Notes: generated from the sequence alone by a model not told the origin. A stretch of 64,000 nucleotides of DNA from an uncultured Gemmatimonadaceae bacterium (GCA_963781585.1 CAWAGQ010000007.1:386253-450252), one strand, 5' to 3'. Shown: positions 6,720-64,000, counted from the stretch's first letter. Translations and numbers: made by a program.

Positions 6720-7444
6720 TGCTTCAGCTCTGCGTGGAGGCTCCGTTCGCCGCCTTTCGGACGTTCACCGCCGGCTGGTACCGGCCGACGGCCTCGTTCA
6801 TCACGCCGTCGGCTGCGTACGGCTTGCTTCTCAATATCGCTGGTATCGAGTCGCGCCTTTGCGAGCACGATCCTGGCCACGGTGGACGCATGCCGGCCAG
6901 CCTCACTAGGCCTGGCCTTCCCTCATGTCGGATTGCCGTCGGTCTACCGGAGGGCGCGGAGCCACCTCGCACTCAATCGCTCTTCCAGCAGCTGCACAAT
7001 TATCCCGTTGGAACCCAAGCCGGGATGCCCTGGGAGATCTCCAAGGGGTCCAAGAACAACGTCACCCCGGTCCGCCGAGAGGTGCTCGTGAACCTGCGCG
7101 CAGTTCTCGCCGTCGATGCACCCCCCGACGGAGACCTCGAGAGCCGGATCATTCGCGGCCTACGGGGCGAGCTCAATGACGACCGATATGGACTGCCATT
7201 CGTCGGCGACAACAACTTTCTCATTGACCAGCTACGAGTCATCGGCGTAGCGCGCCCGGTCAGATGGTACGCGCGAATCGAGTCTACTGACCGACAGGGC
7301 CCGCGACCCGGGGTCACGCGACTCACAACGCATGTCGACCGGGCCGATATGTCTGGTACTCGCTCCGCATTGTACGCGCCCGTCGAGCAGGTCACCATCG
7401 AACCGCCTGACGCCGCATGGACGCAAGTCGGACCCGCGGCATGA
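6719..7444 (+). CDS. cas5: Cas5 (DevS-like)
   Basis: TAATG overlap with cas7. The N-terminal motif LCVEAPFAAFRTFTAGWYRPT..ITPSAAYGLLLNIAG is the classic Cas5 N-terminal signature. Confidence 0.85.
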   Translation: MLQLCVEAPFAAFRTFTAGWYRPTASFITPSAAYGLLLNIAGIESRLCEHDPGHGGRMPASLTRPGLPSCRIAVGLPEGAEPPRTQSLFQQLHNYPVGTQAGMPWEISKGSKNNVTPVRREVLVNLRAVLAVDAPPDGDLESRIIRGLRGELNDDRYGLPFVGDNNFLIDQLRVIGVARPVRWYARIESTDRQGPRPGVTRLTTHVDRADMSGTRSALYAPVEQVTIEPPDAAWTQVGPAA

Positions 7445-7497
7445 TCCCGAGATGAGGGCCGCCGAGCTCCGGGTGCTGATCACATCTGAGTTCTCAC

Positions 7498-9153
7498 ATG
7501 CCTGAACGGCTGCCGACGATGGAGGAGCCCATCCGGGTGATGGCGCTCCACGCACTCCTCTACTGTGAGCGTCTGTTCTATCTCGAGGAGGTCGAAGAGA
7601 TTCGCGTGGCCGACGCTGCCGTATACGCAGGCCGCGAGTTGCATGAGGCACTCGAGGCGGCGGAGGGAGAGAGCGTCGAATCGCTCGAGCTCCAGCACCC
7701 AACGCTCGGCCTCTTCGGCAAGATCGACGCGCTCAAACGGCGCGACGGCAGTTATGTGCCGTACGAGCACAAGCGCGGGCGCTGTCGTCGTGACGATGAC
7801 AACGTACCCTCGGCATGGCCATCCGATCTGGTTCAGGCGGCCGCGTACGGGATGATGCTGGAAGAAACGCTTGGCCGACCCGTGCCGGAAGCGCGAGTCC
7901 GGTATCATGCTGACAACGTCACCGTGCGTATCCCGCTCAACGAATATGCCCGCATGGAAGTCCGGACAGCCGTCGAGCGCGCGCGACTACTGCGGCGAAC
8001 TGTCGAACGCCCGCCGATCGCCGAGAACGAGAAGCTCTGTCGACGATGCTCGCTGGCGCCGGTGTGCTTGCCTGAAGAGGTTCGGCAGGATGCAGATCCG
8101 TCTCACCTGCCGGCGCGCCTCTTCCCGCCGGATGATCAGCGAGGAACGCTGCACGTTGTTTCCGAGGGAGCGAGCGTGGGCCGCTCGGGCGATCGCCTCG
8201 TCGTGCGGCCGCGCGATGGATCGGCGTCATCCCATCCCAGCCGAGAGCTGGCCGCCGTGGTGCTGCACAGCTTCGCGCAGATCAGCACGCAGGCCATCCG
8301 CCTGTGCTGCGACAACGACATCGCGGTACACTGGCTAACGGCGAGCGGCGGACACATCGCATCGCTCACCTCATCCGTTGGCCAGGTCCAGCGTCGTATT
8401 CGGCAGTACAAGGCCCTGGCCGACCCCGCCACTTGCCTGCGACTGGCGAGAACGCTCGCCCATGCGAGGATCGAGGGTCAGCACCGCTACTTGCTGCGCG
8501 CCACGCGCGGCAGCGCGGAGGCACGCGCGACTGTCGATCCGCAGCTCGTCGCGATCGCCGCTCGTCTCGGATCGCTCAATGCTGCATCCGACATCGACTC
8601 CGTACGCGGCCACGAAGGAGAGGCCGCGGTTCACTACTTCGCCTCGCTCAACACACTCCTGTCACCCACCGTGCCCGAGGCACTTCGGTACGCCGGCCGC
8701 ACGCGTCGACCGCCGCTGGATCGGTTCAGCGCCATCCTGAACTTCGGCTACGGACTGCTGCAGACAGCAGTTATGCGGGCTATCCTTGCCGTGGGGCTGG
8801 AGCCGGCGCTGGGATTCTATCACACACCTCGCTCTGCGGCGCACCCGCTGGTGCTGGACCTGATGGAGCTGTTCCGTGTCCCCCTCTGGGATTTGGTGAC
8901 GATCGGATCGCTAAATCGAGGGCAATGGGATCCTGATGAAGATTTCGCTGTTACGAAGACCAAGGTCTGGCTGTCGAACGAAGGCCGAAGGAAGGCGATC
9001 GAGCTCTTCGAGCTCCGTCTTCAGGAGACTTGGAAGCACCCGGTGGTCAATTACTCACTATCCTATCTGCGGACTATCGAGCTGGAGGCGCGGCTTCTGG
9101 AAAAGGAGTGGTCCGGCGAGCCGGGACTGTTCGCCAGGCTGCGTTTACGGTAG
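7498..9153 (+). CDS. cas4/cas1: Cas4-Cas1 fusion protein
   Basis: The N-terminal Cas4 part has LLYCERLFYLEE (first Cys), a D..YEHKRGR RecB-type motif and the CRRCSLAPVC cysteine cluster. The C-terminal Cas1 part has GHEGEAAVHYF, NFGYGLL and LGFYHTPRSAAHPLVLDLMELFR. Length is 551 aa. Confidence 0.95.
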   Translation: MPERLPTMEEPIRVMALHALLYCERLFYLEEVEEIRVADAAVYAGRELHEALEAAEGESVESLELQHPTLGLFGKIDALKRRDGSYVPYEHKRGRCRRDDDNVPSAWPSDLVQAAAYGMMLEETLGRPVPEARVRYHADNVTVRIPLNEYARMEVRTAVERARLLRRTVERPPIAENEKLCRRCSLAPVCLPEEVRQDADPSHLPARLFPPDDQRGTLHVVSEGASVGRSGDRLVVRPRDGSASSHPSRELAAVVLHSFAQISTQAIRLCCDNDIAVHWLTASGGHIASLTSSVGQVQRRIRQYKALADPATCLRLARTLAHARIEGQHRYLLRATRGSAEARATVDPQLVAIAARLGSLNAASDIDSVRGHEGEAAVHYFASLNTLLSPTVPEALRYAGRTRRPPLDRFSAILNFGYGLLQTAVMRAILAVGLEPALGFYHTPRSAAHPLVLDLMELFRVPLWDLVTIGSLNRGQWDPDEDFAVTKTKVWLSNEGRRKAIELFELRLQETWKHPVVNYSLSYLRTIELEARLLEKEWSGEPGLFARLRLR

Positions 9154-48138: not shown

Positions 48139-48795
48139 TCAGACCGGGCCCCGCGTCTTCGCTTTCCACGTCTCGCGGTACCCCGTCCACAGGTGCCAGA
48201 CCGTGATGCCCAGCACCCCTCCGGCGAAGATGCCCATGAGCGCCGTGCCCCAGTTGGGCCACGAGTGGGTCGTGAAGTTGGCGACCTGCTTGGTGCCGAC
48301 GATGCCCGGCATGAATGGGACAATTGTTACGGGCGCATGAGGGTCGAGATCGTGGCCGAAAACATACAGCTTGTACACGAAGCGCACGAAAGCAAAGAGC
48401 GTGATGTATCCGGTGATCACCGAAAGATCGATCAGCGTGCGCACGTTGCCGATCGCGGCGGCGCGCAGCGTCAGGATCACCAGCAGCCCGAACGCAAACG
48501 GGATCCAGTCCAGGTCCGCGAACTGACTGCGCTCGATGCGTCGCATGCCGATGTAGTGGTTCAGCTCGTTGATCTCCTCGATGTCGTGGCCGGCGTGGCC
48601 GGCACCGAGCTTGTACGCATAGACATCCATGTAGAGGCCTTGCGGGTACTGGGGCGCTTCCATGCTGATGCGCCAGAGGGGGCGCGTGAAGCTCAGCGCC
48701 AACGGGATCACCAGCAATGCCAGCGCGATCCGACTTCCGAACCGGATCGGCTGATTCAGGAACTCCTCAAACCGGTCCACCAGCGGGTGTGTCAT
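48139..48795 (-). CDS. Four-TM membrane protein ending the nos operon, function unassigned
   Basis: 218 aa, lying 67 nt downstream of nosY on the same strand. Four hydrophobic segments are predicted. His/Met-containing putative periplasmic loops include GAGHAGHDIEEINELNHYIGM and FGHDLDPHAPVTIVPFMPG..THSWPNW. Confidence 0.7.
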   Translation of the reverse strand: MTHPLVDRFEEFLNQPIRFGSRIALALLVIPLALSFTRPLWRISMEAPQYPQGLYMDVYAYKLGAGHAGHDIEEINELNHYIGMRRIERSQFADLDWIPFAFGLLVILTLRAAAIGNVRTLIDLSVITGYITLFAFVRFVYKLYVFGHDLDPHAPVTIVPFMPGIVGTKQVANFTTHSWPNWGTALMGIFAGGVLGITVWHLWTGYRETWKAKTRGPV

Positions 48796-51906: not shown

Positions 51907-53874
51907 TCACCGCGCCGGCTTCACCAGCATGTAGCCCATCATCTCCAGATGCAACGCCGAGCAGAACTCCGTGCAGTAGTACGGGAACACGCCACTCCGG
52001 TCCACCACGATGGTGAAGTTCGCCGTCTTGCCCGGCTCGACGCTCAGATTCACGTCGTACTCTCCCAGGCCGAAACCGTGGGTCGCGTCCGGCGTCTGCT
52101 CCAGGTTCGTAATGTGGAAGTGCACGGTATCCCCTTGCTCGACTTCCACCAGGTCCGGCTTCATGTGGCTGCGCACCTCGGTCATGAAGACGCTCACGAC
52201 CTTGCCATGCCGCTCGATGCGCGCGTTCGCTTCTGATGTGACGGCGTTGGGATCGGCCTGGTGCGACACGGCGTTCTCGCCCACCGGCGTGTACATCTGC
52301 ACCGGCTGCAGCTTGTCCGCGCTGATGATCTGTGCATAGTGCGGCTCGCCGAGTCCAATAGGCATGTCGTACAGGAGCTGCATCTCGGGAGTAGACGTGT
52401 CGATGAGCTGCAGGTTCTGTGGCAGCAACGGGCCGACGTTGTTGAACCGGTCGATGGACCACTTGTCCAGCGCCAGCACGTAGTGCCCCTTCGGATGCTC
52501 CGTGTCACCCTCGGGGGTGGCCAGGTGACCGATGTTATAGTGCACGGAGATCTTCCCGAGCAGCTTCATGTCCTTCAGCGACCACTTGGCGATCTTCGAC
52601 TCGATGAACAACGACGTGTAGCCGTTGCCCTGGTCGTCCCACTGTGTGTGCAGCGGGCCCAGGCCCACTTCGACCTGCCCGTGGAGCGCTGTCCGGAACC
52701 CGATGATCGGCACGCCGTACGGATCGTTGCCCTCAAAATTCCTGGCGTCGATGGCCTGCTTGATCTGTTCGAAGTCGTAGACGGTCTCGTGGGTGTCGAG
52801 CTTGCCCGACACCGCCAGGTACCTGCCGTCGGGGGTGACGTCCACACCATGCGGGCTTTTGGGCTCAGGAACGAAGAACAGCAGTCCCTCGGATATGGAT
52901 GTGCTGAGCGGGATGACTCGCACGCCCTGGATCGTGCGTGTTCCGCCGGCCTGCTGCGCCACCTCCGCCGCACGGCGCCAGTTGATGACGTGCAGGTAGT
53001 CCATGTCGTTCTGCGACGCACCGGACTCCAGTGGCGGCCGTCCCTCCATGGTCCCACCGTGCGCCCGCTCCGTGTCGAACGAGTTGATGAAGGCCCAACC
53101 GTCGCTCACCAGCTTGCCCGCGTCCGACAGGTCCTGCATGTATGGTGGCAGCTCCATGGCGAAGGACTGCGACGGGTCGATCCTGCCCCGCGCCCGGTCG
53201 AACTTCCAGAACATGACCGCGCCCCGATAAGCGTCATTGTAGTCGGAGATCGACGCATAGCTGCCGTTCAGCGGGATGGGGTACTGGCCCCCCTCGATGA
53301 TGTAGTCCGTGTTGGGGGTGACGAACGTGCCACCGTGATCCGTGCCCAGGAGAGGTGAGTGAACGATCTGCGTGGTCACGAAGTCCTTCAGGCTGATCAC
53401 GGCCACGCGGGCGTTCGCCTTGTCGTTGATGAACAGGAACTGGCCGTCGTAGTCGCCGTTGGTCTCGCTCAGCGCCGGGTGGTGACTGTCGCCCCACGTC
53501 AGGGTCCTCCCCTTCGGGGAACTCGACACCATCAGCTCCTGGCTCTGCTCGTCGAATCCGTACCCCTGCCAGGGCTCCGGTGTGAAGACGCCGATGTACT
53601 TCAGGATTCGCATGGACGGCACACCGACCACCACCACCTGACCGCTGTGCCCGCCTGACGCGAACATGATGAACGGGTCCGTCCGACCCGTGGGCGTGTA
53701 CGTCTTCAACGCCGCCACCACATCCGCCTCGGTCAGGTTGCGCGCTCTCATCAGCGTTTGCACCGATTCGGCGCCCGGAGCGCGTGGTCCACCACACGCC
53801 CACAGAGCCGCCACCGTTGCCAGGACCGCCGTGCGCGCCAGCCCCGGCCTCTTCGCTGATCTCGTCCTATCCAT
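51907..53874 (-). CDS. nosZ: Nitrous oxide reductase NosZ, Sec/lipoprotein-type signal (clade II-like)
   Basis: 655 aa. The C-terminal CuA motif is YCTEFCSALHLEMMGYMLV. It has a beta-propeller body with conserved His residues. The N-terminus MDRTRSAKRPGLARTAVLATVAALWACGG lacks a twin-arginine motif. Confidence 0.95.
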   Translation of the reverse strand: MDRTRSAKRPGLARTAVLATVAALWACGGPRAPGAESVQTLMRARNLTEADVVAALKTYTPTGRTDPFIMFASGGHSGQVVVVGVPSMRILKYIGVFTPEPWQGYGFDEQSQELMVSSSPKGRTLTWGDSHHPALSETNGDYDGQFLFINDKANARVAVISLKDFVTTQIVHSPLLGTDHGGTFVTPNTDYIIEGGQYPIPLNGSYASISDYNDAYRGAVMFWKFDRARGRIDPSQSFAMELPPYMQDLSDAGKLVSDGWAFINSFDTERAHGGTMEGRPPLESGASQNDMDYLHVINWRRAAEVAQQAGGTRTIQGVRVIPLSTSISEGLLFFVPEPKSPHGVDVTPDGRYLAVSGKLDTHETVYDFEQIKQAIDARNFEGNDPYGVPIIGFRTALHGQVEVGLGPLHTQWDDQGNGYTSLFIESKIAKWSLKDMKLLGKISVHYNIGHLATPEGDTEHPKGHYVLALDKWSIDRFNNVGPLLPQNLQLIDTSTPEMQLLYDMPIGLGEPHYAQIISADKLQPVQMYTPVGENAVSHQADPNAVTSEANARIERHGKVVSVFMTEVRSHMKPDLVEVEQGDTVHFHITNLEQTPDATHGFGLGEYDVNLSVEPGKTANFTIVVDRSGVFPYYCTEFCSALHLEMMGYMLVKPAR

Positions 53875-53994: not shown

Positions 53995-54447
53995 CTATTT
54001 CTCTTTCCCGAAATTCCGCACGATTTCTCTGAGTGCACCGATTACGGCCGGCTTGCTGCCCAGGTCCGGATTTGCCACCATGGCCGGGCTTCGACCCACG
54101 GCCGCACCCCCATACAGGATTGCCGTCTCGATCTCCTTGTCCGTCACGCTGTCCTGCCACGCGGGGTTGTGGTAGTTGCGCGGCTTCGGATCCAGCGCCA
54201 CCCCGCCGGGTCCATCGCCGCGGCCCTCGGGACCATGACAGACGCTGCAGCGGGTGGCGAAGATCTGTTTGGCTTCCTGACGCGCCGCATCCGTGATCTG
54301 GACGTCACCACTTCCTGTCGATTCCGCGCCCGCCGTTGTGGCCGCGCTGTCGCCGCTCGCCGCTTCCTTCGAGCCGCCGCAGGCCGCCAGCACACCTGCC
54401 ACGAACAACAGGGTGACCATCGTCAGCACCCGATCCGCTGCAGTCAT
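53995..54447 (-). CDS. Monoheme c-type cytochrome lipoprotein (likely NosZ electron donor)
   Basis: Lipobox VLAAC. It has a single CSVCH heme motif with downstream Met (SPAMV). It is the first gene of the nos operon. Confidence 0.85.
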   Translation of the reverse strand: MTAADRVLTMVTLLFVAGVLAACGGSKEAASGDSAATTAGAESTGSGDVQITDAARQEAKQIFATRCSVCHGPEGRGDGPGGVALDPKPRNYHNPAWQDSVTDKEIETAILYGGAAVGRSPAMVANPDLGSKPAVIGALREIVRNFGKEK

Positions 54448-58798: not shown

Positions 58799-59269
58799 GT
58801 GGCGATACGCGACACGACGGAGCCGATCAGCGGGCCTCGAGCCTGGGCCCCGAGCTTCGGTGAGTACCTGCTCGGCGGCCTGCTGGTCCTCATGGCGGCG
58901 ATCGCGCTGCTGGTGGTCTTTCTCTACTGGCTGCCACCGGAACAGCTCCAGCTCCCCGAGCTGCAACCGGCGTTGCGTGTCGGGTCCGTCGGCTCATTCC
59001 CGGTGGGCGCCGGACGCAGCGTGCGCTGGGGCGATCAGGTGATCCTCGTCGTGCGACCGGACACGGGCCGGTTTACCGCGCTCGAGGGCGTCGCCTCGAC
59101 CGATGGGTGCCTCCTCGAGTGGTCGCCGACGGCCCTCCGCATCGAATCGCCGTGCAGCTACATCGTCTACGACCTGCACGGCAACGTCGTGCGTGGGCTC
59201 ACCACCGTGCCGCTCAGACGCTACCCAACGTTCGTGCGTGACGACGTCCTCTACGTCGGGAGGCCATGA
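58799..59269 (+). CDS. Membrane-anchored Rieske-fold protein lacking the [2Fe-2S] ligands
   Basis: An N-terminal TM segment (YLLGGLLVLMAAIALLVVFLYWL) is present. The C-terminal segment RFTALEGVASTDGCLLEW....IESPCSYIVYDLHGNVVRG..TVPLRRYP..V..DVLYVG aligns by eye with Rieske box I (C-x-H-x-G-C) and box II (C-x-C-H-G-S-x-[YF]-D..G....GP). It lies immediately upstream of cytochrome b. Confidence 0.6.
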   Translation: MAIRDTTEPISGPRAWAPSFGEYLLGGLLVLMAAIALLVVFLYWLPPEQLQLPELQPALRVGSVGSFPVGAGRSVRWGDQVILVVRPDTGRFTALEGVASTDGCLLEWSPTALRIESPCSYIVYDLHGNVVRGLTTVPLRRYPTFVRDDVLYVGRP

Positions 59270-59270
59270 C

Positions 59271-60515
59271 ATGTCGACCTCCGCAGGTGGGCGTGGGCCT
59301 TCGTGGACGCAACGCCTGTGGGCCGACGTCGCCGCGAGCACCGATGCGAGCGTGCTCGCTGTTCTCCGCTTCCTCGGCCTCCTTTACGGCCCCATCGACA
59401 CCAGGCTTCCGATTGATCAGGCCTTCCGCAAGGCATTGCACAATCGTGTCCCACGTCACGTCAGCTGGCGCCACGCCTTCGGCGGCATCACCTATCTCCT
59501 CTTCGTAATCCTCGTTGGCACAGGGGTCCTGCTCTCGCTCTACTACCGCCCGTCGGCCCAGGAAGCGTACCAGAGCGTACAGCATATCGTCTCGGGGATC
59601 TCGTTCGGCTGGCTGATGCGCGATCTCCACAGCTGGAGCGCCAACCTCGTTGTTCTCGCGGCGCTCGTGCACATGGCGCGCGTGTTCTTCAGCGGCGCCT
59701 ACAAGCCGCCGCGCGAGACGAACTGGCTGGTCGGCCTGCTGCTGTTGTTCGTGATCTTCGCGTTCGGCGCCACCGGCTACCTGCTTCCCTGGGACCAGTG
59801 GGCCTACTGGACGACCACGCAGGGTCTCCTGGTCGTCGGCCATCTCCCGGTCATCGGCGGCTGGGCGACCAGCGTGCTGCGCGGCGATCCACTCGTTTCC
59901 GGAGCGACGCTGAGCCGCTTCTTCGCGCTGCACGTGATCGTGCTGCCGTGGATCGCACTCGGCCTGCTCGTGCTGCACTTCCAACTGCTTCGCAAGCACG
60001 GCGTCGCCGGGCCGCACGACGAGGACAGGCTCGTCGTGTCGCCGAGCGATTCCAGCACACGGGACGGTGTGCCGTTTTTCCCCGTCCATCTCCTCCGCTC
60101 AATCAGCGTCGCCGTGCTCGTCGTCGCGGTCGCGGTCACCGCCGCTGTACTGCATCCGCGCGATGTGGCGCCGCCGGCCGACGCGAGCCATCCGCCCGCT
60201 GAGCTGTACGCCACGTGGGTCGTCGCGGATGTCTCGCGCGCGCTCTTCTACTACCTCGGCCCGTGGGGCTTCGGCGCCTTCCTGCTCCTTGGCATCGTGC
60301 TGATGACGCTGCCGCTGTTCGATCGGGCCCCCGAACGGCGCTTGCGCCGCCGTCCGCTCGTCGCAGGACTCGGCATCGCATTCTTCCTCGGGTTCGCGGT
60401 GGCGTGGGGCGCAGGATGGCGTCTGCGGACGGCGCCGAGCTCCGGCGAGCTCGGGTCTCTGGTCCTTCCCGCGGGCCCCGTGGATTCGCTGCCCACCGCT
60501 CGCACACCGAAATGA
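59271..60515 (+). CDS. Cytochrome b (long, b6 plus subunit IV-like fusion)
   Basis: ATG at 59271 lies 2 nt after the previous stop. The helix B His pair is LHSWSANLVVLAALVHMARVF (13 residues between). It has GYLLPWDQ and a helix D His pair FFALHVIVLPWIALGLLVLHF (14 residues between). Length is 414 aa. Confidence 0.9.
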   Translation: MSTSAGGRGPSWTQRLWADVAASTDASVLAVLRFLGLLYGPIDTRLPIDQAFRKALHNRVPRHVSWRHAFGGITYLLFVILVGTGVLLSLYYRPSAQEAYQSVQHIVSGISFGWLMRDLHSWSANLVVLAALVHMARVFFSGAYKPPRETNWLVGLLLLFVIFAFGATGYLLPWDQWAYWTTTQGLLVVGHLPVIGGWATSVLRGDPLVSGATLSRFFALHVIVLPWIALGLLVLHFQLLRKHGVAGPHDEDRLVVSPSDSSTRDGVPFFPVHLLRSISVAVLVVAVAVTAAVLHPRDVAPPADASHPPAELYATWVVADVSRALFYYLGPWGFGAFLLLGIVLMTLPLFDRAPERRLRRRPLVAGLGIAFFLGFAVAWGAGWRLRTAPSSGELGSLVLPAGPVDSLPTARTPK

Positions 60516-61765
60516 GCCGCCCCACGACGCTCGGCCCCCTGCTGCTCGCGAGCGCCATCGCACTCGGCCTCGCGGTGCAATCGAGCGCGCTCACCGCGCA
60601 GCAGTCCCCCACGTCCGCGCCGAATCGCTGCCTCACCTGCCATGCCGCAGAGCGCGAGGCCGCGACGGTCGGCGTGCACTCCGACAACGGCGTGCAGTGC
60701 GTCGAATGCCACGGCGGCAACGCCGCGGCGTCCCAGCTTCCCGCGGCCCACGGCAACGGCTTTACGGGGCACCTCGACAAGATCGCGACGGCGCGGCTCT
60801 GCGGGTCGTGCCACTCCGATCCGAACAAGATGCGCGAGTACGGCCTGAACACCGCCGAACTCGCGGAGTATCGCACCAGCCGGCATGGGCAGCTCCTGTT
60901 CGACCGGCACGATGCGAACGCGCCGACGTGCACCGACTGCCATGGCACGCACGTCATCTATCCGCCCTACGATGCGCGCAGCAAGGTGTACCCGACGAAC
61001 ATCCCCGGCACTTGCGCGCACTGTCATGCCGACGCGAAGCTGATGGCGAAGTACCAGATCCGCACGGACCAGCTCGAGCAGTTCACCGCCAGCGCCCACG
61101 GCCTGGCGCTTTTCCAGAAGCGGGATTTCGCGGCGCCGACGTGCGTGTCCTGTCATGGCGCGCATTCCGCGCTCCCGCCTACGCATACCCAGGTGGCGAG
61201 CGTGTGTGGAAACTGTCATCAGCTCGTGGCGACCGCGTTCAATACGGGGCCGCATGGCGCCGCCACGCGGTCGGGACGGCTCAAGGGCTGCCTCGGCTGC
61301 CACACCAACCACGGTACGCAGCGCGTGGCCGACGACAGCATCGCGCGTACGTGCGATCGCTGCCACGCGGGCGACTCGCGACTGCACCAGACCGCGGTCG
61401 ATCTCCAGCACCGGATGACCCAGGCGACGCTCGACCTGCGGTCGGCGCGCCGTGCCGTCGACCGCCTGACGGTAACCGGCCACCCTGCGACCGACGCGCG
61501 GTTCCGGTATCAATCCACGCTGACCGACTACCTGCAGATTGCGCAGATACAGCACGGGCTCGACCTCGACGGAGTGGAGCGGCTCGAGGGGCGCGTGAGC
61601 GCCGGCTCGATCGAGCTCGATCGCATGGCGACGGCGAGTGAGGAATCGCGCTGGGAACACAAGCTTATCCTCCTGCCCGTCTGGTTCCTGTCGCTCTCCG
61701 CCGTCGCGCTCGCGTGGCTTGCGCTGCGGTCGCTGCGCAGCGACACGCGGGACGCAGAGTCGTAG
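60512..61765 (+). CDS. Nonaheme c-type cytochrome with C-terminal membrane anchor
   Basis: ATGA overlap with cytochrome b. It has a signal peptide and nine CxxCH motifs (CLTCH, CVECH, CGSCH, CTDCH, CAHCH, CVSCH, CGNCH, CLGCH, CDRCH). The C-terminal TM segment is LILLPVWFLSLSAVALAWLAL. Confidence 0.9.
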   Translation: MSRPTTLGPLLLASAIALGLAVQSSALTAQQSPTSAPNRCLTCHAAEREAATVGVHSDNGVQCVECHGGNAAASQLPAAHGNGFTGHLDKIATARLCGSCHSDPNKMREYGLNTAELAEYRTSRHGQLLFDRHDANAPTCTDCHGTHVIYPPYDARSKVYPTNIPGTCAHCHADAKLMAKYQIRTDQLEQFTASAHGLALFQKRDFAAPTCVSCHGAHSALPPTHTQVASVCGNCHQLVATAFNTGPHGAATRSGRLKGCLGCHTNHGTQRVADDSIARTCDRCHAGDSRLHQTAVDLQHRMTQATLDLRSARRAVDRLTVTGHPATDARFRYQSTLTDYLQIAQIQHGLDLDGVERLEGRVSAGSIELDRMATASEESRWEHKLILLPVWFLSLSAVALAWLALRSLRSDTRDAES

Positions 61766-61768
61766 GAC

Positions 61769-63823
61769 ATGTCACCGACGGCCCGCCGCCGGCTCTCGCG
61801 CACCGCGAAGGTCGCGGTGCCAATCGCCATCCTCGGCATCGTTCTGCTCGTTGTCGGGACGGCGGGCTTCGTAGAAGTCTCGAGCCAGCCGTGGTTCTGC
61901 GGCAGTTGCCACATCATGCAGCCGTACCACGCGTCCTGGGAGAAGTCGACGCACCGCGACGTGCCGTGCATCAAGTGCCACATCGCACCCGGCATCAAAG
62001 CCGAGGCGATGACCAAGATCCAGGCCGCCAACATGGTGGTGAAGGACCTCACCGGGGCGGTGAACGGGCGTCCGTGGGCCAAGATCGAGGACGCGTCGTG
62101 CCTGCGTTCGGGCTGCCACTCGACACGGCTCATCCAGGGAGAGGTCGAGTACAAGGGCGTACGCTTCGACCACGCGGCGCACCTCGGCCAGGTCCGCCGC
62201 GGCATCCAGCTTCATTGCACGAGTTGTCATTCGCAGATCGTGCAGGGCTCGCACATCGCGGTCACCGAGGGCACCTGCGTGCTCTGCCACTTCAAGGGAC
62301 GTCCGGTCGACAAGCCGGTGGCGACGTGCACTGGCTGTCACCCGTCGCCGCCGCGCGTGACGTCAAAAGAAGGGTTTGTCGTCGACCATCCGTCGTTCGT
62401 GAAGGACAGGATCGACTGTCTGTCGTGCCACAGCGAGGTGACGCAGGGCGCGGGCGAGGCCGACCCCGAGCGGTGCGTGAGCTGCCACAACGAGCCGCAG
62501 AAGCTGGCGCAGATGAACGATGCGTCGATGCTGCACCGCGTGCACGTGGGCCAGGAAACCATCGCGTGCGTGCAGTGCCACACCACGATGCAGCACCGCA
62601 TCGTGGCGCTCACCACCACGCCGCAGCTCGATTGCAAGGCGTGTCACAGCAACGTGCACCTCGCCCAGCAGAAGCTCTACGCCGGGGTGGGCGGGTATCT
62701 GTCGCGGCTGCAAGCCGGCACGTCCACCGAGCTGGAAGCGGCGCACGCGGCGACGATACCCAGCTCCATGTTCCAGGCACGCGTCTCGTGCGTTGGGTGT
62801 CACAACGACGCGTCACGCTTGCCCGGCCACGACACCGTGCAGGTCGCCAACGGCGCATCCTGCATGTCGTGCCACGGCGTGCGCTACGCGAACGTGCTCC
62901 CGAGCTGGCAGCGAGGCATGGAGCGCAAGGTGGCGCTCGTCGATCCGGTCGTGCAGGATGCGATGGCGGCTGCCAGGTCGCTGCCGGTGGGCCGACGGGC
63001 GCGCGCCGACAGCCTGCTGGGTCAGGCCGCCGACAATGTTGCGCTCGTGCGTGCCGGCAAGGGCGTGCACAACATCATCTACGCCGATCAGCTGCTCCGC
63101 AGTGCACTCGATCTCGTGCGGCAGGCGACGAGGGACGCGCAGGTCCCGTATCGCGCGCCAGGCGTGGATCTCGGACCGCCGGTGACCGAGAACCAGTGCC
63201 TCCAGTGCCACATGGGCGTCGAGGCGCAGCAGGCCCCGTTTGCCGACCGCACGTTCAGCCACGAGCCGCACGTGGTCCGGGCTGGACTCCAGTGCGGCAT
63301 GTGTCACACGTCATTCGCGAACCATGGCGGCACGCTGCTCACGTCCGCGGCGAGCTGCGACAACTGTCATCACAACCCGGTACCGTCGCCGACGCGCAAC
63401 TGCGCGCAGTGCCACCCGGGCCCGGGCGGGGCGCCGACCGACACGCTGCGTCGCTCGCAAGGCGATTTTACGCACGCGCGGCACGTCGCGGCGAATGTGC
63501 AGTGTGCCGCGTGCCACGAAGCGCCGACGATGACGGCCAAGGCGCTCAATTGCGATGGATGTCACGCGCAGCACCATCAAGTGCAGGACGCGTGTCTCTC
63601 CTGTCATCGCGGGGGCGCGCTCGCGAAGCACAGTCTCTCGACGGCGCACGCAGCCTGCTCCGGGTGCCACAAGACGGTGCCGGCGATCAACCAGTGGACG
63701 CGGCAGGTGTGCACAGCGTGCCACGCGGCACAGACCACGCACAAGCCCGGCGGCGCGTGCGAAACGTGCCACCGTGTGCCGCCCATGGCCGCGGCCGCCA
63801 GACGCCCGGGCAACCTGCATTAG
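61769..63823 (+). CDS. Large multiheme c-type cytochrome (21 CxxCH plus one CX4CH) with NapC/NrfH-like N-terminus
   Basis: An N-terminal TM anchor is followed by WFCGSCHIMQPYHASWEKSTHRDVPCIKCH, which is NapC/NirT/NrfH-like. I counted 21 CxxCH motifs and one CLRSGCH. Length is 684 aa. Confidence 0.9.
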   Translation: MSPTARRRLSRTAKVAVPIAILGIVLLVVGTAGFVEVSSQPWFCGSCHIMQPYHASWEKSTHRDVPCIKCHIAPGIKAEAMTKIQAANMVVKDLTGAVNGRPWAKIEDASCLRSGCHSTRLIQGEVEYKGVRFDHAAHLGQVRRGIQLHCTSCHSQIVQGSHIAVTEGTCVLCHFKGRPVDKPVATCTGCHPSPPRVTSKEGFVVDHPSFVKDRIDCLSCHSEVTQGAGEADPERCVSCHNEPQKLAQMNDASMLHRVHVGQETIACVQCHTTMQHRIVALTTTPQLDCKACHSNVHLAQQKLYAGVGGYLSRLQAGTSTELEAAHAATIPSSMFQARVSCVGCHNDASRLPGHDTVQVANGASCMSCHGVRYANVLPSWQRGMERKVALVDPVVQDAMAAARSLPVGRRARADSLLGQAADNVALVRAGKGVHNIIYADQLLRSALDLVRQATRDAQVPYRAPGVDLGPPVTENQCLQCHMGVEAQQAPFADRTFSHEPHVVRAGLQCGMCHTSFANHGGTLLTSAASCDNCHHNPVPSPTRNCAQCHPGPGGAPTDTLRRSQGDFTHARHVAANVQCAACHEAPTMTAKALNCDGCHAQHHQVQDACLSCHRGGALAKHSLSTAHAACSGCHKTVPAINQWTRQVCTACHAAQTTHKPGGACETCHRVPPMAAAARRPGNLH

Positions 63824-63915: not shown

Positions 63916-64000
63916 TCAGCGAATTCCGAGAATCTTCTTCTGCAGCTCGGCCGGGGTGCTCTGCATGTGGCAGGTGGAGCACTCGCGGCCGCGCATGTGA
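63916..64000 (-). CDS. 3' end of a c-type cytochrome gene (partial; continues beyond the window)
   Basis: The minus-strand frame reads ..HMRGRECSTCHMQSTPAELQKKILGIR*, containing a CSTCH heme motif. Only 28 codons are visible. Confidence 0.4.
   Translation of the reverse strand, partial: HMRGRECSTCHMQSTPAELQKKILGIR

Follow-up and report, generated by a model that had tools for sequence, protein, structure and literature searches.

At the heart of every cytochrome bc complex, by the prevailing view, stand the Rieske centre and the quinol-oxidising (Qo) motif of cytochrome b. A 64,000-nucleotide stretch of DNA from an uncultured Gemmatimonadaceae bacterium (GCA_963781585.1, CAWAGQ010000007.1:386253–450252; hereafter the window) carries a four-gene operon, g1–g4 (positions 58799–63823), which encodes a bc-type scaffold that appears to have neither. 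Its Rieske-fold protein is without the four [2Fe-2S] ligands, its b6-like cytochrome b is without the Qo motif, and its two multihaem cytochromes hold 31 c-haem sites in total (9 in g3 and 22 in g4). Judging from the sequences, there is about an even chance that g1–g4 represents a Gemmatimonadota-wide descendant of Rieske/cytochrome b complexes that works without a bifurcating Q cycle and exports quinol electrons through its 31 c haems. A widespread version under purifying selection that keeps the scaffold without both features would mean that the bc architecture can be reused for other kinds of electron movement. We found no published description of the g1–g4 operon, nor of a bc-type complex without a Rieske cluster, in the literature.

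The window spans 386253–450252 of contig C7 of the genome (G000; a 5.7-Mb assembly in 17 contigs), and positions are counted from its first letter unless another locus is named. All four genes are on the plus strand: g1 (58799–59269, GTG start, 156 residues) encodes a membrane-anchored Rieske-fold subunit without a [2Fe-2S] site; g2 (59271–60515, 414 residues), a b6-like dihaem cytochrome b with a fused subunit IV-like part; g3 (60512–61765, 417 residues), a nonahaem cytochrome c with a Sec signal peptide and a C-terminal transmembrane anchor; and g4 (61769–63823, 684 residues), a 22-haem cytochrome c with an N-terminal transmembrane anchor and an NrfH-type head. The open reading frames lie exactly where a preliminary description of this DNA had put them, and the tight coupling that it claimed is evident from the junctions, namely a 1-nucleotide gap between g1 and g2 (TGA-C-ATG), an ATGA overlap between g2 and g3, and a 3-nucleotide gap between g3 and g4. 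Its total of about 31 c haems also held on recounting, with nine CxxCH motifs in g3 and 21 CxxCH motifs plus one CLRSGCH in g4. A promoter scan of the operon and the converging genes downstream gave no sigma-70-like site, and a terminator scan of the same region gave seven terminator-like sites, none of them at the junction of g4 with the converging gene d1 and not clearly more than the shuffled expectation.

The operon is widespread and strictly ordered. Our phylum sample consisted of 301 evenly drawn Gemmatimonadota genomes, in which a clusterless g1 orthologue was called at E < 1e-35; 31 of the 301 have one. Twenty operon loci were fetched from this sample for gene order and haem counts, g4 being complete in 19 and cut by a contig end in one. 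A second set of named loci was made up of the best 80 from a scan of one genome per species, in which at least 573 genomes had a g4 relative, all 80 being metagenome-assembled genomes of Gemmatimonadota from soil, groundwater, sediment and sand filters. The preliminary description had suggested a search for the same gene order in other genomes, and the order g1-g2-g3-g4 is indeed kept in 20/20 fetched loci; 67 of the 80 named loci hold all four genes, and these are collinear and contain the clusterless Rieske gene without exception (67/67 for both). Furthermore, g3 has nine haem sites in 20/20 orthologues and g4 has 21+1 in 19/19 complete orthologues. Such identical haem counts cannot be due to chance.

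What kind of protein is g1? It had been called Rieske-like, and the fold, the membrane anchor and the disulfide cysteines agree with that name; the [2Fe-2S] site does not, all four ligands having been replaced. The first cluster box, CTHLGC, has become ASTDGC, and the second, CPCH, has become SPCS. This loss was seen in 120/120 database homologues and in the 67/67 complete named loci. On the other hand, the disulfide cysteines C104 and C119 are invariant among the 120 homologues, over which g1 has 16 invariant and 26 nearly invariant columns at identities down to ~46%. The protein matches the Rieske protein of Chlorobaculum (C. tepidum; 8hn2_A) with a phmmer E value of 5.5e-10, and the same chain is the best Protein Data Bank (PDB) match (template modelling score 0.84) of an AlphaFold2 (AF2) model with a predicted local distance difference test score (pLDDT) of 88.7; the Kuenenia and full-length b6f Rieske proteins follow. 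One transmembrane helix is predicted at residues 24–42. Judging from the alignment and the model, g1 is a true Rieske-fold protein, and the two together show that it has been kept as an apparently cofactor-less structural subunit with a transmembrane helix and a disulfide-stabilised fold. A substitute metal site was ruled out, as no conserved His, Cys or Met exists besides the disulfide pair. A soluble NirD-like protein was ruled out by the transmembrane anchor, the constant place 5′ of the cytochrome b gene, and the best structural matches, which are bc-type Rieske proteins.

In a profile search of 1.8 billion representative proteins, the clusterless family was sharply separate, with 12 representatives at E values up to 1e-30, and a few other partly degenerate Rieske-like proteins were also retrieved. 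Rieske-like proteins with altered cluster boxes include P0379, P0454 and P0366/P0368/P0372. Among the altered boxes are CPRTGC with CPCD, in which both histidines are lost, and CTYLDGC with CPCC, in which His is replaced by Tyr and Cys. There is also a second, fully clusterless Rieske-like subfamily with a length of 143 residues.

The cytochrome b partner, g2, has kept its haems and lost its Qo motif. The histidine spacing is of the b6 type, as the preliminary description had read it, with 13 residues in helix B (H-SWSANLVVLAALV-H) and 14 in helix D (H-VIVLPWIALGLLVL-H), and all four haem histidines (the bL and bH ligands) are kept in 120/120 homologues. The b6-type Arg after the haem bH ligand is also conserved. 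The position of the PEWY motif reads ATWV, and in 120/120 homologues it conforms to (S/A/T)(T/S/N)W(I/V/L), so that none of them has the Pro, the acidic residue or the Tyr. The natural Qo variants PEWY, PDWY, PVWY and PPWF all retain the Pro and an aromatic end (PMC4122944). Could haem ci compensate as a further cofactor? The cysteine position that binds it (FYCLGG) is Ala in g2 (HAFGG), and the variants listed for 110 of the 120 homologues include no Cys there, only Ala, Val or Met; haem ci was thus ruled out. In family searches, g2 matches PF00033 with an E value of 5e-47 and the NCBIfam models for cytochrome b6 and ExtP with 223 and 219 bits, both below the cut-offs; its alignment with cyanobacterial b6 stands at about 45%. 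Seven transmembrane helices are predicted. Long cytochromes b (8smr_I, 6kls_B) align over their C-terminal half with the corresponding part of g2, and there is a weak subunit IV match, which bears out the earlier proposal of a fused subunit IV-like part in the 414-residue protein. As far as the encoded residues tell, a classical bifurcating Q cycle is excluded for g1/g2, because the first electron acceptor (the Rieske cluster) and the Qo motif are both gone.

The loss of catalytic signatures could also mean that g1–g4 is merely a decaying duplicate with no function of its own. The same genome has an intact paralogous cluster elsewhere on the contig (C7:40450–48961, minus strand, outside the window), which encodes, in this order, an 8-haem cytochrome, a 9-haem cytochrome, a barrel-like protein (C7:44888–46492, minus strand, no Pfam match), a 16-haem cytochrome, a 9-haem cytochrome, a Rieske protein and a cytochrome b. 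Its Rieske protein has CTHLGC and CACH, and its cytochrome b has PEWY. However, g1–g4 contain no frameshifts or stop codons, and the conserved g1 columns, the constant haem counts, the 67/67 gene order and the spread of g4 relatives over at least 573 genomes are not what decay would leave behind. On this conservation pattern in the sequence data, decay was rejected, and we give it next to no credence.

In two genomes of a deeper family, f12 (loci L060 and L061), the same four-gene order occurs, but the Rieske protein is a normal one, with CTHKGC or CPHKGC followed by CPCH, and the g4 relative has 20 CxxCH motifs. PEWY was seen in L061, which has a long cytochrome b; the L060 cytochrome b reading frame is short and stops before that region. 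Because the f12 operons share the gene order and yet retain an intact Rieske protein (and PEWY in L061), the joint loss of cluster and PEWY is probably a derived state of an operon that already had four genes. In a cytochrome b tree, the operon copies form a clade separate from the canonical paralogues (support 100/99), and the f12 four-gene copies sit on a very long branch; direct descent of the clusterless operon from f12-type copies is likely, although not proven. The g2 of the window (family f1) joins copies from families f2 and f6 in this tree before it joins other f1 copies. This placement suggests movement of the operon between families of Gemmatimonadota.

The two remaining genes encode the multihaem cytochromes. 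In g3, nine CxxCH motifs, a signal peptide, and predicted transmembrane helices at residues 4–22 and 385–403 agree with the nonahaem cytochrome with a C-terminal anchor that had been described. The protein has a haem-free helical stalk and is 33% identical to a 9-haem cytochrome of the canonical cluster of the same genome. It occupies the c1/f position of the complex.

The N-terminal part of g4 had been described as the start of a quinol dehydrogenase of the NapC/NirT/NrfH type, and this is borne out by the alignment with NrfH, the CxxCHxM motif and Lys83. Residues 13–116 align position for position with Desulfovibrio vulgaris NrfH (2j7a_C; E 5e-7). In 50 homologues, C44, C47, H48 and M50 of the CxxCHxM motif are invariant, and so is K83, the equivalent of NrfH Lys82. 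Four haem sites of the head match NrfH positions, the third being a CX4CH site (CLRSGCH). The family scores are an E value of 1.8e-13 for the NrfH model TIGR03153 (50.7 bits, compared with a cut-off of 134.2) and 9e-9 for PF03264. The NrfH-type head thus looks catalytically intact from its residues. The preliminary description had counted two potential quinol-oxidising modules in the operon; one of them, the NrfH/NapC-type head of g4, stands, whereas the Rieske/cytochrome b pair, without [2Fe-2S] ligands and PEWY, is not a normal Qo module.

Past the head, g4 has 18 more haem sites, which are interrupted by a haem-free three-helix bundle (residues ~362–456; 62852–63136). We built an AF2 model of g4 from an alignment of 50 sequences, and this bundle is its sole confident part, with pLDDT > 90 at residues 362–456. 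A PDB fold search with the model gave nothing below an E value of 0.08, with weak matches to MccA and octahaem nitrite reductase. The three-helix bundle, which g4 has in common with d1, may be an element for oligomerisation or docking.

Beside the operon lie further genes for electron transfer. The c-type cytochrome gene that had been noticed converging at the end of the window is real: the 3′ end of d1 occupies 63916–64000 on the minus strand, and the whole gene (L009 5917–7350, minus strand) encodes a 477-residue, 12-haem cytochrome that is 34% identical to g4 residues 314–668 and paralogous to the C-terminal half of g4. Outside the window follow d2 (L009 ~7275–8180, minus strand), an FdnI/HydC-like dihaem cytochrome b (PF01292 and TIGR01583, E 4e-9), and d3 (L009 8183–9640, minus strand), an 11-haem cytochrome with a C-terminal anchor. 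The d3-d2 pair is found beside the operon in 18/20 complete sampled loci, in many cases immediately after it and in the same orientation; of the named loci, 32 have the pair on the operon strand and 10 have it converging. Directly upstream of g1, 16/20 loci have a gene for an 8–9-haem lipoprotein of ~540 residues, which is not found in the window genome. In one example (L044 4144–5844, plus strand), the haem region of the lipoprotein matches the C-terminal part of the NCBIfam model "UshA-like (seleno)protein" (E 8e-19, below the cut-off). Furthermore, a barrel-like protein together with a 12- or 16-haem cytochrome is encoded within 20 kb of the operon in 14/20 loci.

Of the 19 sampled genomes that contain both the operon and an uptake [NiFe] hydrogenase with a cytochrome b of its own, 10 have the two on one contig, 2–32 kb apart. 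Two genomes have the hydrogenase genes right beside g1 in divergent orientation (L050 1331–5570, minus strand; L043 14627–19070, plus strand), and the hydrogenase operon contains genes for the small and large subunits and a maturation protease and, in L043, also for a Ni_hydr_CYTB cytochrome b. The window genome has its [NiFe] hydrogenase on another contig (C13:518405–519955). The predicted neighbour set has the layout of a respiratory island, in which a donor arm that reduces quinone adjoins several acceptor arms that oxidise quinol and supply multihaem cytochromes; the closeness of the hydrogenase to the operon fits such a donor arm beside an acceptor arm. These neighbours point to an electron-export network from quinol to multihaem cytochromes. 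The earlier idea of a long-range electron conduit fits the conserved CbcBA-like module, the extra multihaem cytochromes, and the barrel-like protein with its 12- or 16-haem cytochrome.

How might such a complex work? As far as its predicted parts allow us to say, electrons from quinol in the membrane are probably delivered to distant acceptors in a manner not described before. Menaquinol would be oxidised at the NrfH-type head of g4 on the periplasmic side. The two b haems would form a non-bifurcating transmembrane wire to a quinone site on the negative (N) side of the membrane, and the clusterless Rieske protein would have a structural role only. The 31 low-potential c haems would collect the electrons and hand them to d1, the CbcBA-like d3-d2 pair, the 8–9-haem lipoprotein, and the barrel-like protein with its 12- or 16-haem cytochrome, and these partners would pass them on to periplasmic or extracellular acceptors. 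Where the acceptors have a low potential, the loss of the Rieske centre (~+100 mV) would remove a thermodynamic trap. The complex would then be one of several alternative quinol oxidases in the respiratory island, much as Geobacter has ImcH, CbcL and CbcBA, rather than a dedicated NosZ donor. That the genome retains the separate canonical Rieske/cytochrome b cluster for ordinary duty supports this export of quinol electrons.

The same parts could also carry electrons inward. The complex would then act as a cytochrome c:menaquinone oxidoreductase and, in the manner of FdnI or Qrc, form an electrogenic donor arm, in which electrons from Fe(II), reduced humics or a partner cell would enter the c haems and run through the two b haems to the N-side quinone site. 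The b haems and the b6-type Arg are conserved and the site on the positive (P) side is degenerate, so the only likely remaining quinone site of the cytochrome b is on the N side. Multihaem neighbours and a barrel-like protein would serve uptake equally well, and modules of the CbcL/MtoC type run both ways, in iron reducers as well as in iron oxidisers (PMC6295460). However, the invariant CxxCHxM head belongs to a family known as quinol dehydrogenases, and the neighbouring hydrogenases, with their own cytochrome b, already reduce quinone. No iron-oxidation marker of the Cyc2 or MtoA type was noticed near the operon, although no systematic search was made for one. Inward flow is therefore, in our judgement, unlikely.

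Could the operon supply electrons to NosZ? It lies 4351 nucleotides (4.35 kb) from a nos cluster, the distance given earlier being confirmed (the cytochrome c gene starts at 54447). The order in the cluster is cytochrome c, nosZ, nosD, nosF, nosY and a gene for a four-transmembrane-helix protein (48139–48795, minus strand; no Pfam or NCBIfam match). NosZ itself (51907–53874, minus strand) is a Sec-type clade II enzyme (TIGR04246, 842 bits). Homologues of the four-helix protein are encoded directly after nosZ, in the NosB position, in eight other Gemmatimonadota nos clusters. In the window genome and in genome G238, the gene sits behind nosY instead and has thus moved. The preliminary description had noted that the nos operon lacks any quinol-oxidising module of the NosGH/NosR type and had proposed that g1–g4 might feed NosZ. 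As to the first point, the cluster does have a NosB-position membrane protein and a cytochrome c, and the canonical Rieske/cytochrome b complex of the genome could supply it. The second finds no support in gene order, since none of the 20 fetched loci has nosZ within 20 kb of the operon and none of the 80 named loci has it within 7 kb. Conversely, the eight nos clusters examined contain no g1–g4 homologue. The proximity of operon and nos cluster is, as far as these loci go, peculiar to the window genome.

Co-occurrence with clade II nosZ, which had been put forward for testing, gave a divided answer. For nosZ of any type, the odds ratio with the operon was 1.9 (p 0.12; 301 genomes). Across Gemmatimonadota, NosZ identity to the window enzyme is bimodal, being either 58–85% or ≤48%. 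With the window subtype (≥58%), the operon was present in 12/18 genomes compared with 19/283 others, an odds ratio of 28 that is subject to a subtype boundary drawn after the scores had been seen and to related genomes that are not independent. At the genus level, the operon occurred with the window subtype in 10/16 compared with 10/113 (odds ratio 17), and the association was also found inside family f2 (odds ratio 11.8, p 0.0008) and family f6 (odds ratio 12, p 0.048). The [NiFe] hydrogenase, used as a control trait, was also enriched (odds ratio 3.7), and part of the subtype signal can thus be ascribed to a shared niche. Neither gene depends on the other for its presence. We take the subtype co-occurrence to reflect a common anaerobic niche; a functional tie is possible but unproven.

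The complex would, if it served NosZ, be the quinol-oxidising supply of the neighbouring clade II enzyme in place of NosGH or NosR, with the monohaem cytochrome c of the nos cluster relaying electrons from the multihaem chain to NosZ. In favour of this stand the short distance in the window and the subtype co-occurrence, which holds in f2 and f6 separately; moreover, clade II N2O respiration in Wolinella reportedly requires a Rieske/cytochrome bc complex. On the other hand, besides the missing gene-order link, the weak association with nosZ of any type, the enriched hydrogenase control, and a post hoc subtype among dependent relatives, the operon and nosZ lie on different contigs in every co-occurring genome of the sample. 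No nosZ was seen in 15 of the 31 operon genomes, some of which are closely related to nosZ-positive ones (genera g44, g49 and g58), and 6/18 genomes with the subtype have no operon, including G238, which has the closest nosZ (84–85%). A chain of 31 low-potential haems would also be an odd route to a single high-potential enzyme when a canonical bc complex is present. We consider a role as the NosZ supply quite improbable. The nearest NosZ (84–85%) is that of G238, a member of another family (f2), whereas the other NosZ class prevails among genomes of the family to which the window belongs, which suggests that the nos cluster was horizontally transferred.

Returning to the export of quinol electrons through the 31 c haems, several observations weigh against it. 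NrfH Asp89 is not kept in g4, where the position is Met, although the adjacent Asn88 is invariant. The AF2 model of g4 is poor (mean pLDDT 59.8), and the length and continuity of the haem chain cannot be read off from it. No outer-membrane component adjoins the operon in the window genome, whose two barrel-like genes lie elsewhere: one in the canonical cluster and the other, together with 8- and 16-haem cytochromes, at C10:123288–128134. The strong co-occurrence with one nosZ subtype is explained only by way of the shared niche. Finally, a non-acidic second PEWY residue alone leaves Qo activity intact in beta- and gamma-proteobacteria (PMC4122944), and the Q-cycle argument therefore rests on the motif loss combined with the missing cluster.

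A more far-reaching version can be offered only tentatively, and we regard it as rather doubtful. The complex would be a new class of energy-converting quinol:multihaem-cytochrome oxidoreductase with haem-only acceptance on a bc scaffold in place of the Qo chemistry of the Rieske centre, in which an NrfH-type site is wired to bL/bH and to the 31-haem chain. It would perhaps still split electrons between a transmembrane branch through the b haems and an outward branch along the c haems. Functional coupling to the distinct clade II NosZ subtype would exist in some members of the phylum.

The Gemmatimonadota, which are abundant in soil, are known for N2O reduction; to our knowledge, they are not known for extracellular electron transfer. 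If the complex and its neighbours export electrons, models of the anaerobic life of this phylum and of its role in iron, humic and N2O turnover would change. The complex is also a natural experiment on the structural versus the catalytic contribution of the Rieske head.

How does the g1–g4 complex compare with known systems? With bc1 and b6f complexes, the g1–g2 pair shares the fold, the anchor, the adjacency of the two genes, and the four haem histidines, whereas the [2Fe-2S] ligands and the Qo motif P(E/D/V/P)W(Y/F) are missing; unlike cytochrome b6f, g2 also has no haem ci/cn cysteine. There are precedents for the loss of a cofactor site with retention of the fold. One is the Pyrobaculum cytochrome b without a haem bH ligand (PMC4122944), and another is the clusterless Rieske fold of the NirD type (PDB 4aiv, which is among the structural matches of g1). 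NirD, however, is soluble and unrelated to cytochrome b, whereas in g1 the loss affects a membrane-anchored bc-type subunit, jointly with the Qo motif of its partner.

Multihaem Rieske/cytochrome b systems are found in Geobacter sulfurreducens (extMNOPQS, that is, GSU2935–2930; PMC5877670), in anammox bacteria, and in Caldithrix, which has a nap-linked pair (PMC5317091). As in these systems, a transmembrane-anchored Rieske fold adjoins a b6-like cytochrome b that includes a subunit IV part, and multihaem cytochromes replace c1/f. None of them has been reported to lack the Rieske cluster, and g1–g4 differ from all three in the missing [2Fe-2S] ligands and PEWY, in the order Rieske, cytochrome b, 9-haem and 22-haem cytochrome, and in the NrfH-headed 22-haem subunit. 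Compared with Geobacter ext, the gene order is different; ExtP is the second-best NCBIfam match of g2, with its 219 bits falling short of the cut-off of 290, and ExtM and ExtS score ~20 bits. It is the canonical cluster of the same genome that resembles Geobacter extHIJKLMNOPQS (PMC5877670).

With NrfH, NapC, NirT and CymA, g4 shares the N-terminal transmembrane helix, the CxxCHxM first motif, the Lys82 equivalent, and four haem sites at matching positions. It differs from them in its CX4CH third site, the non-conserved Asp89, the 18 further haem sites fused to the head, and the location of its gene inside a bc-type operon rather than beside a reductase. Unlike the nos donor modules (NosGH, NosR and nos-linked Rieske/cytochrome b), g1–g4 are not conservedly placed in or beside nos clusters. 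The arrangement as a whole resembles that of Geobacter ImcH, CbcL and CbcBA, in which the periplasmic multihaem cytochromes are supplied by a number of alternative cytochrome modules linked to quinone (bioRxiv 10.1101/2021.04.15.440034; PMC6295460). The sequence kinship with these modules is only at the domain level, and g1–g4 derive from a Rieske/cytochrome b complex rather than from an FdnI-type cytochrome b. The neighbouring d3-d2 pair, on the other hand, has the make-up of Geobacter CbcA/CbcB, with a C-terminally anchored multihaem cytochrome c and an FdnI/HydC-like dihaem cytochrome b.

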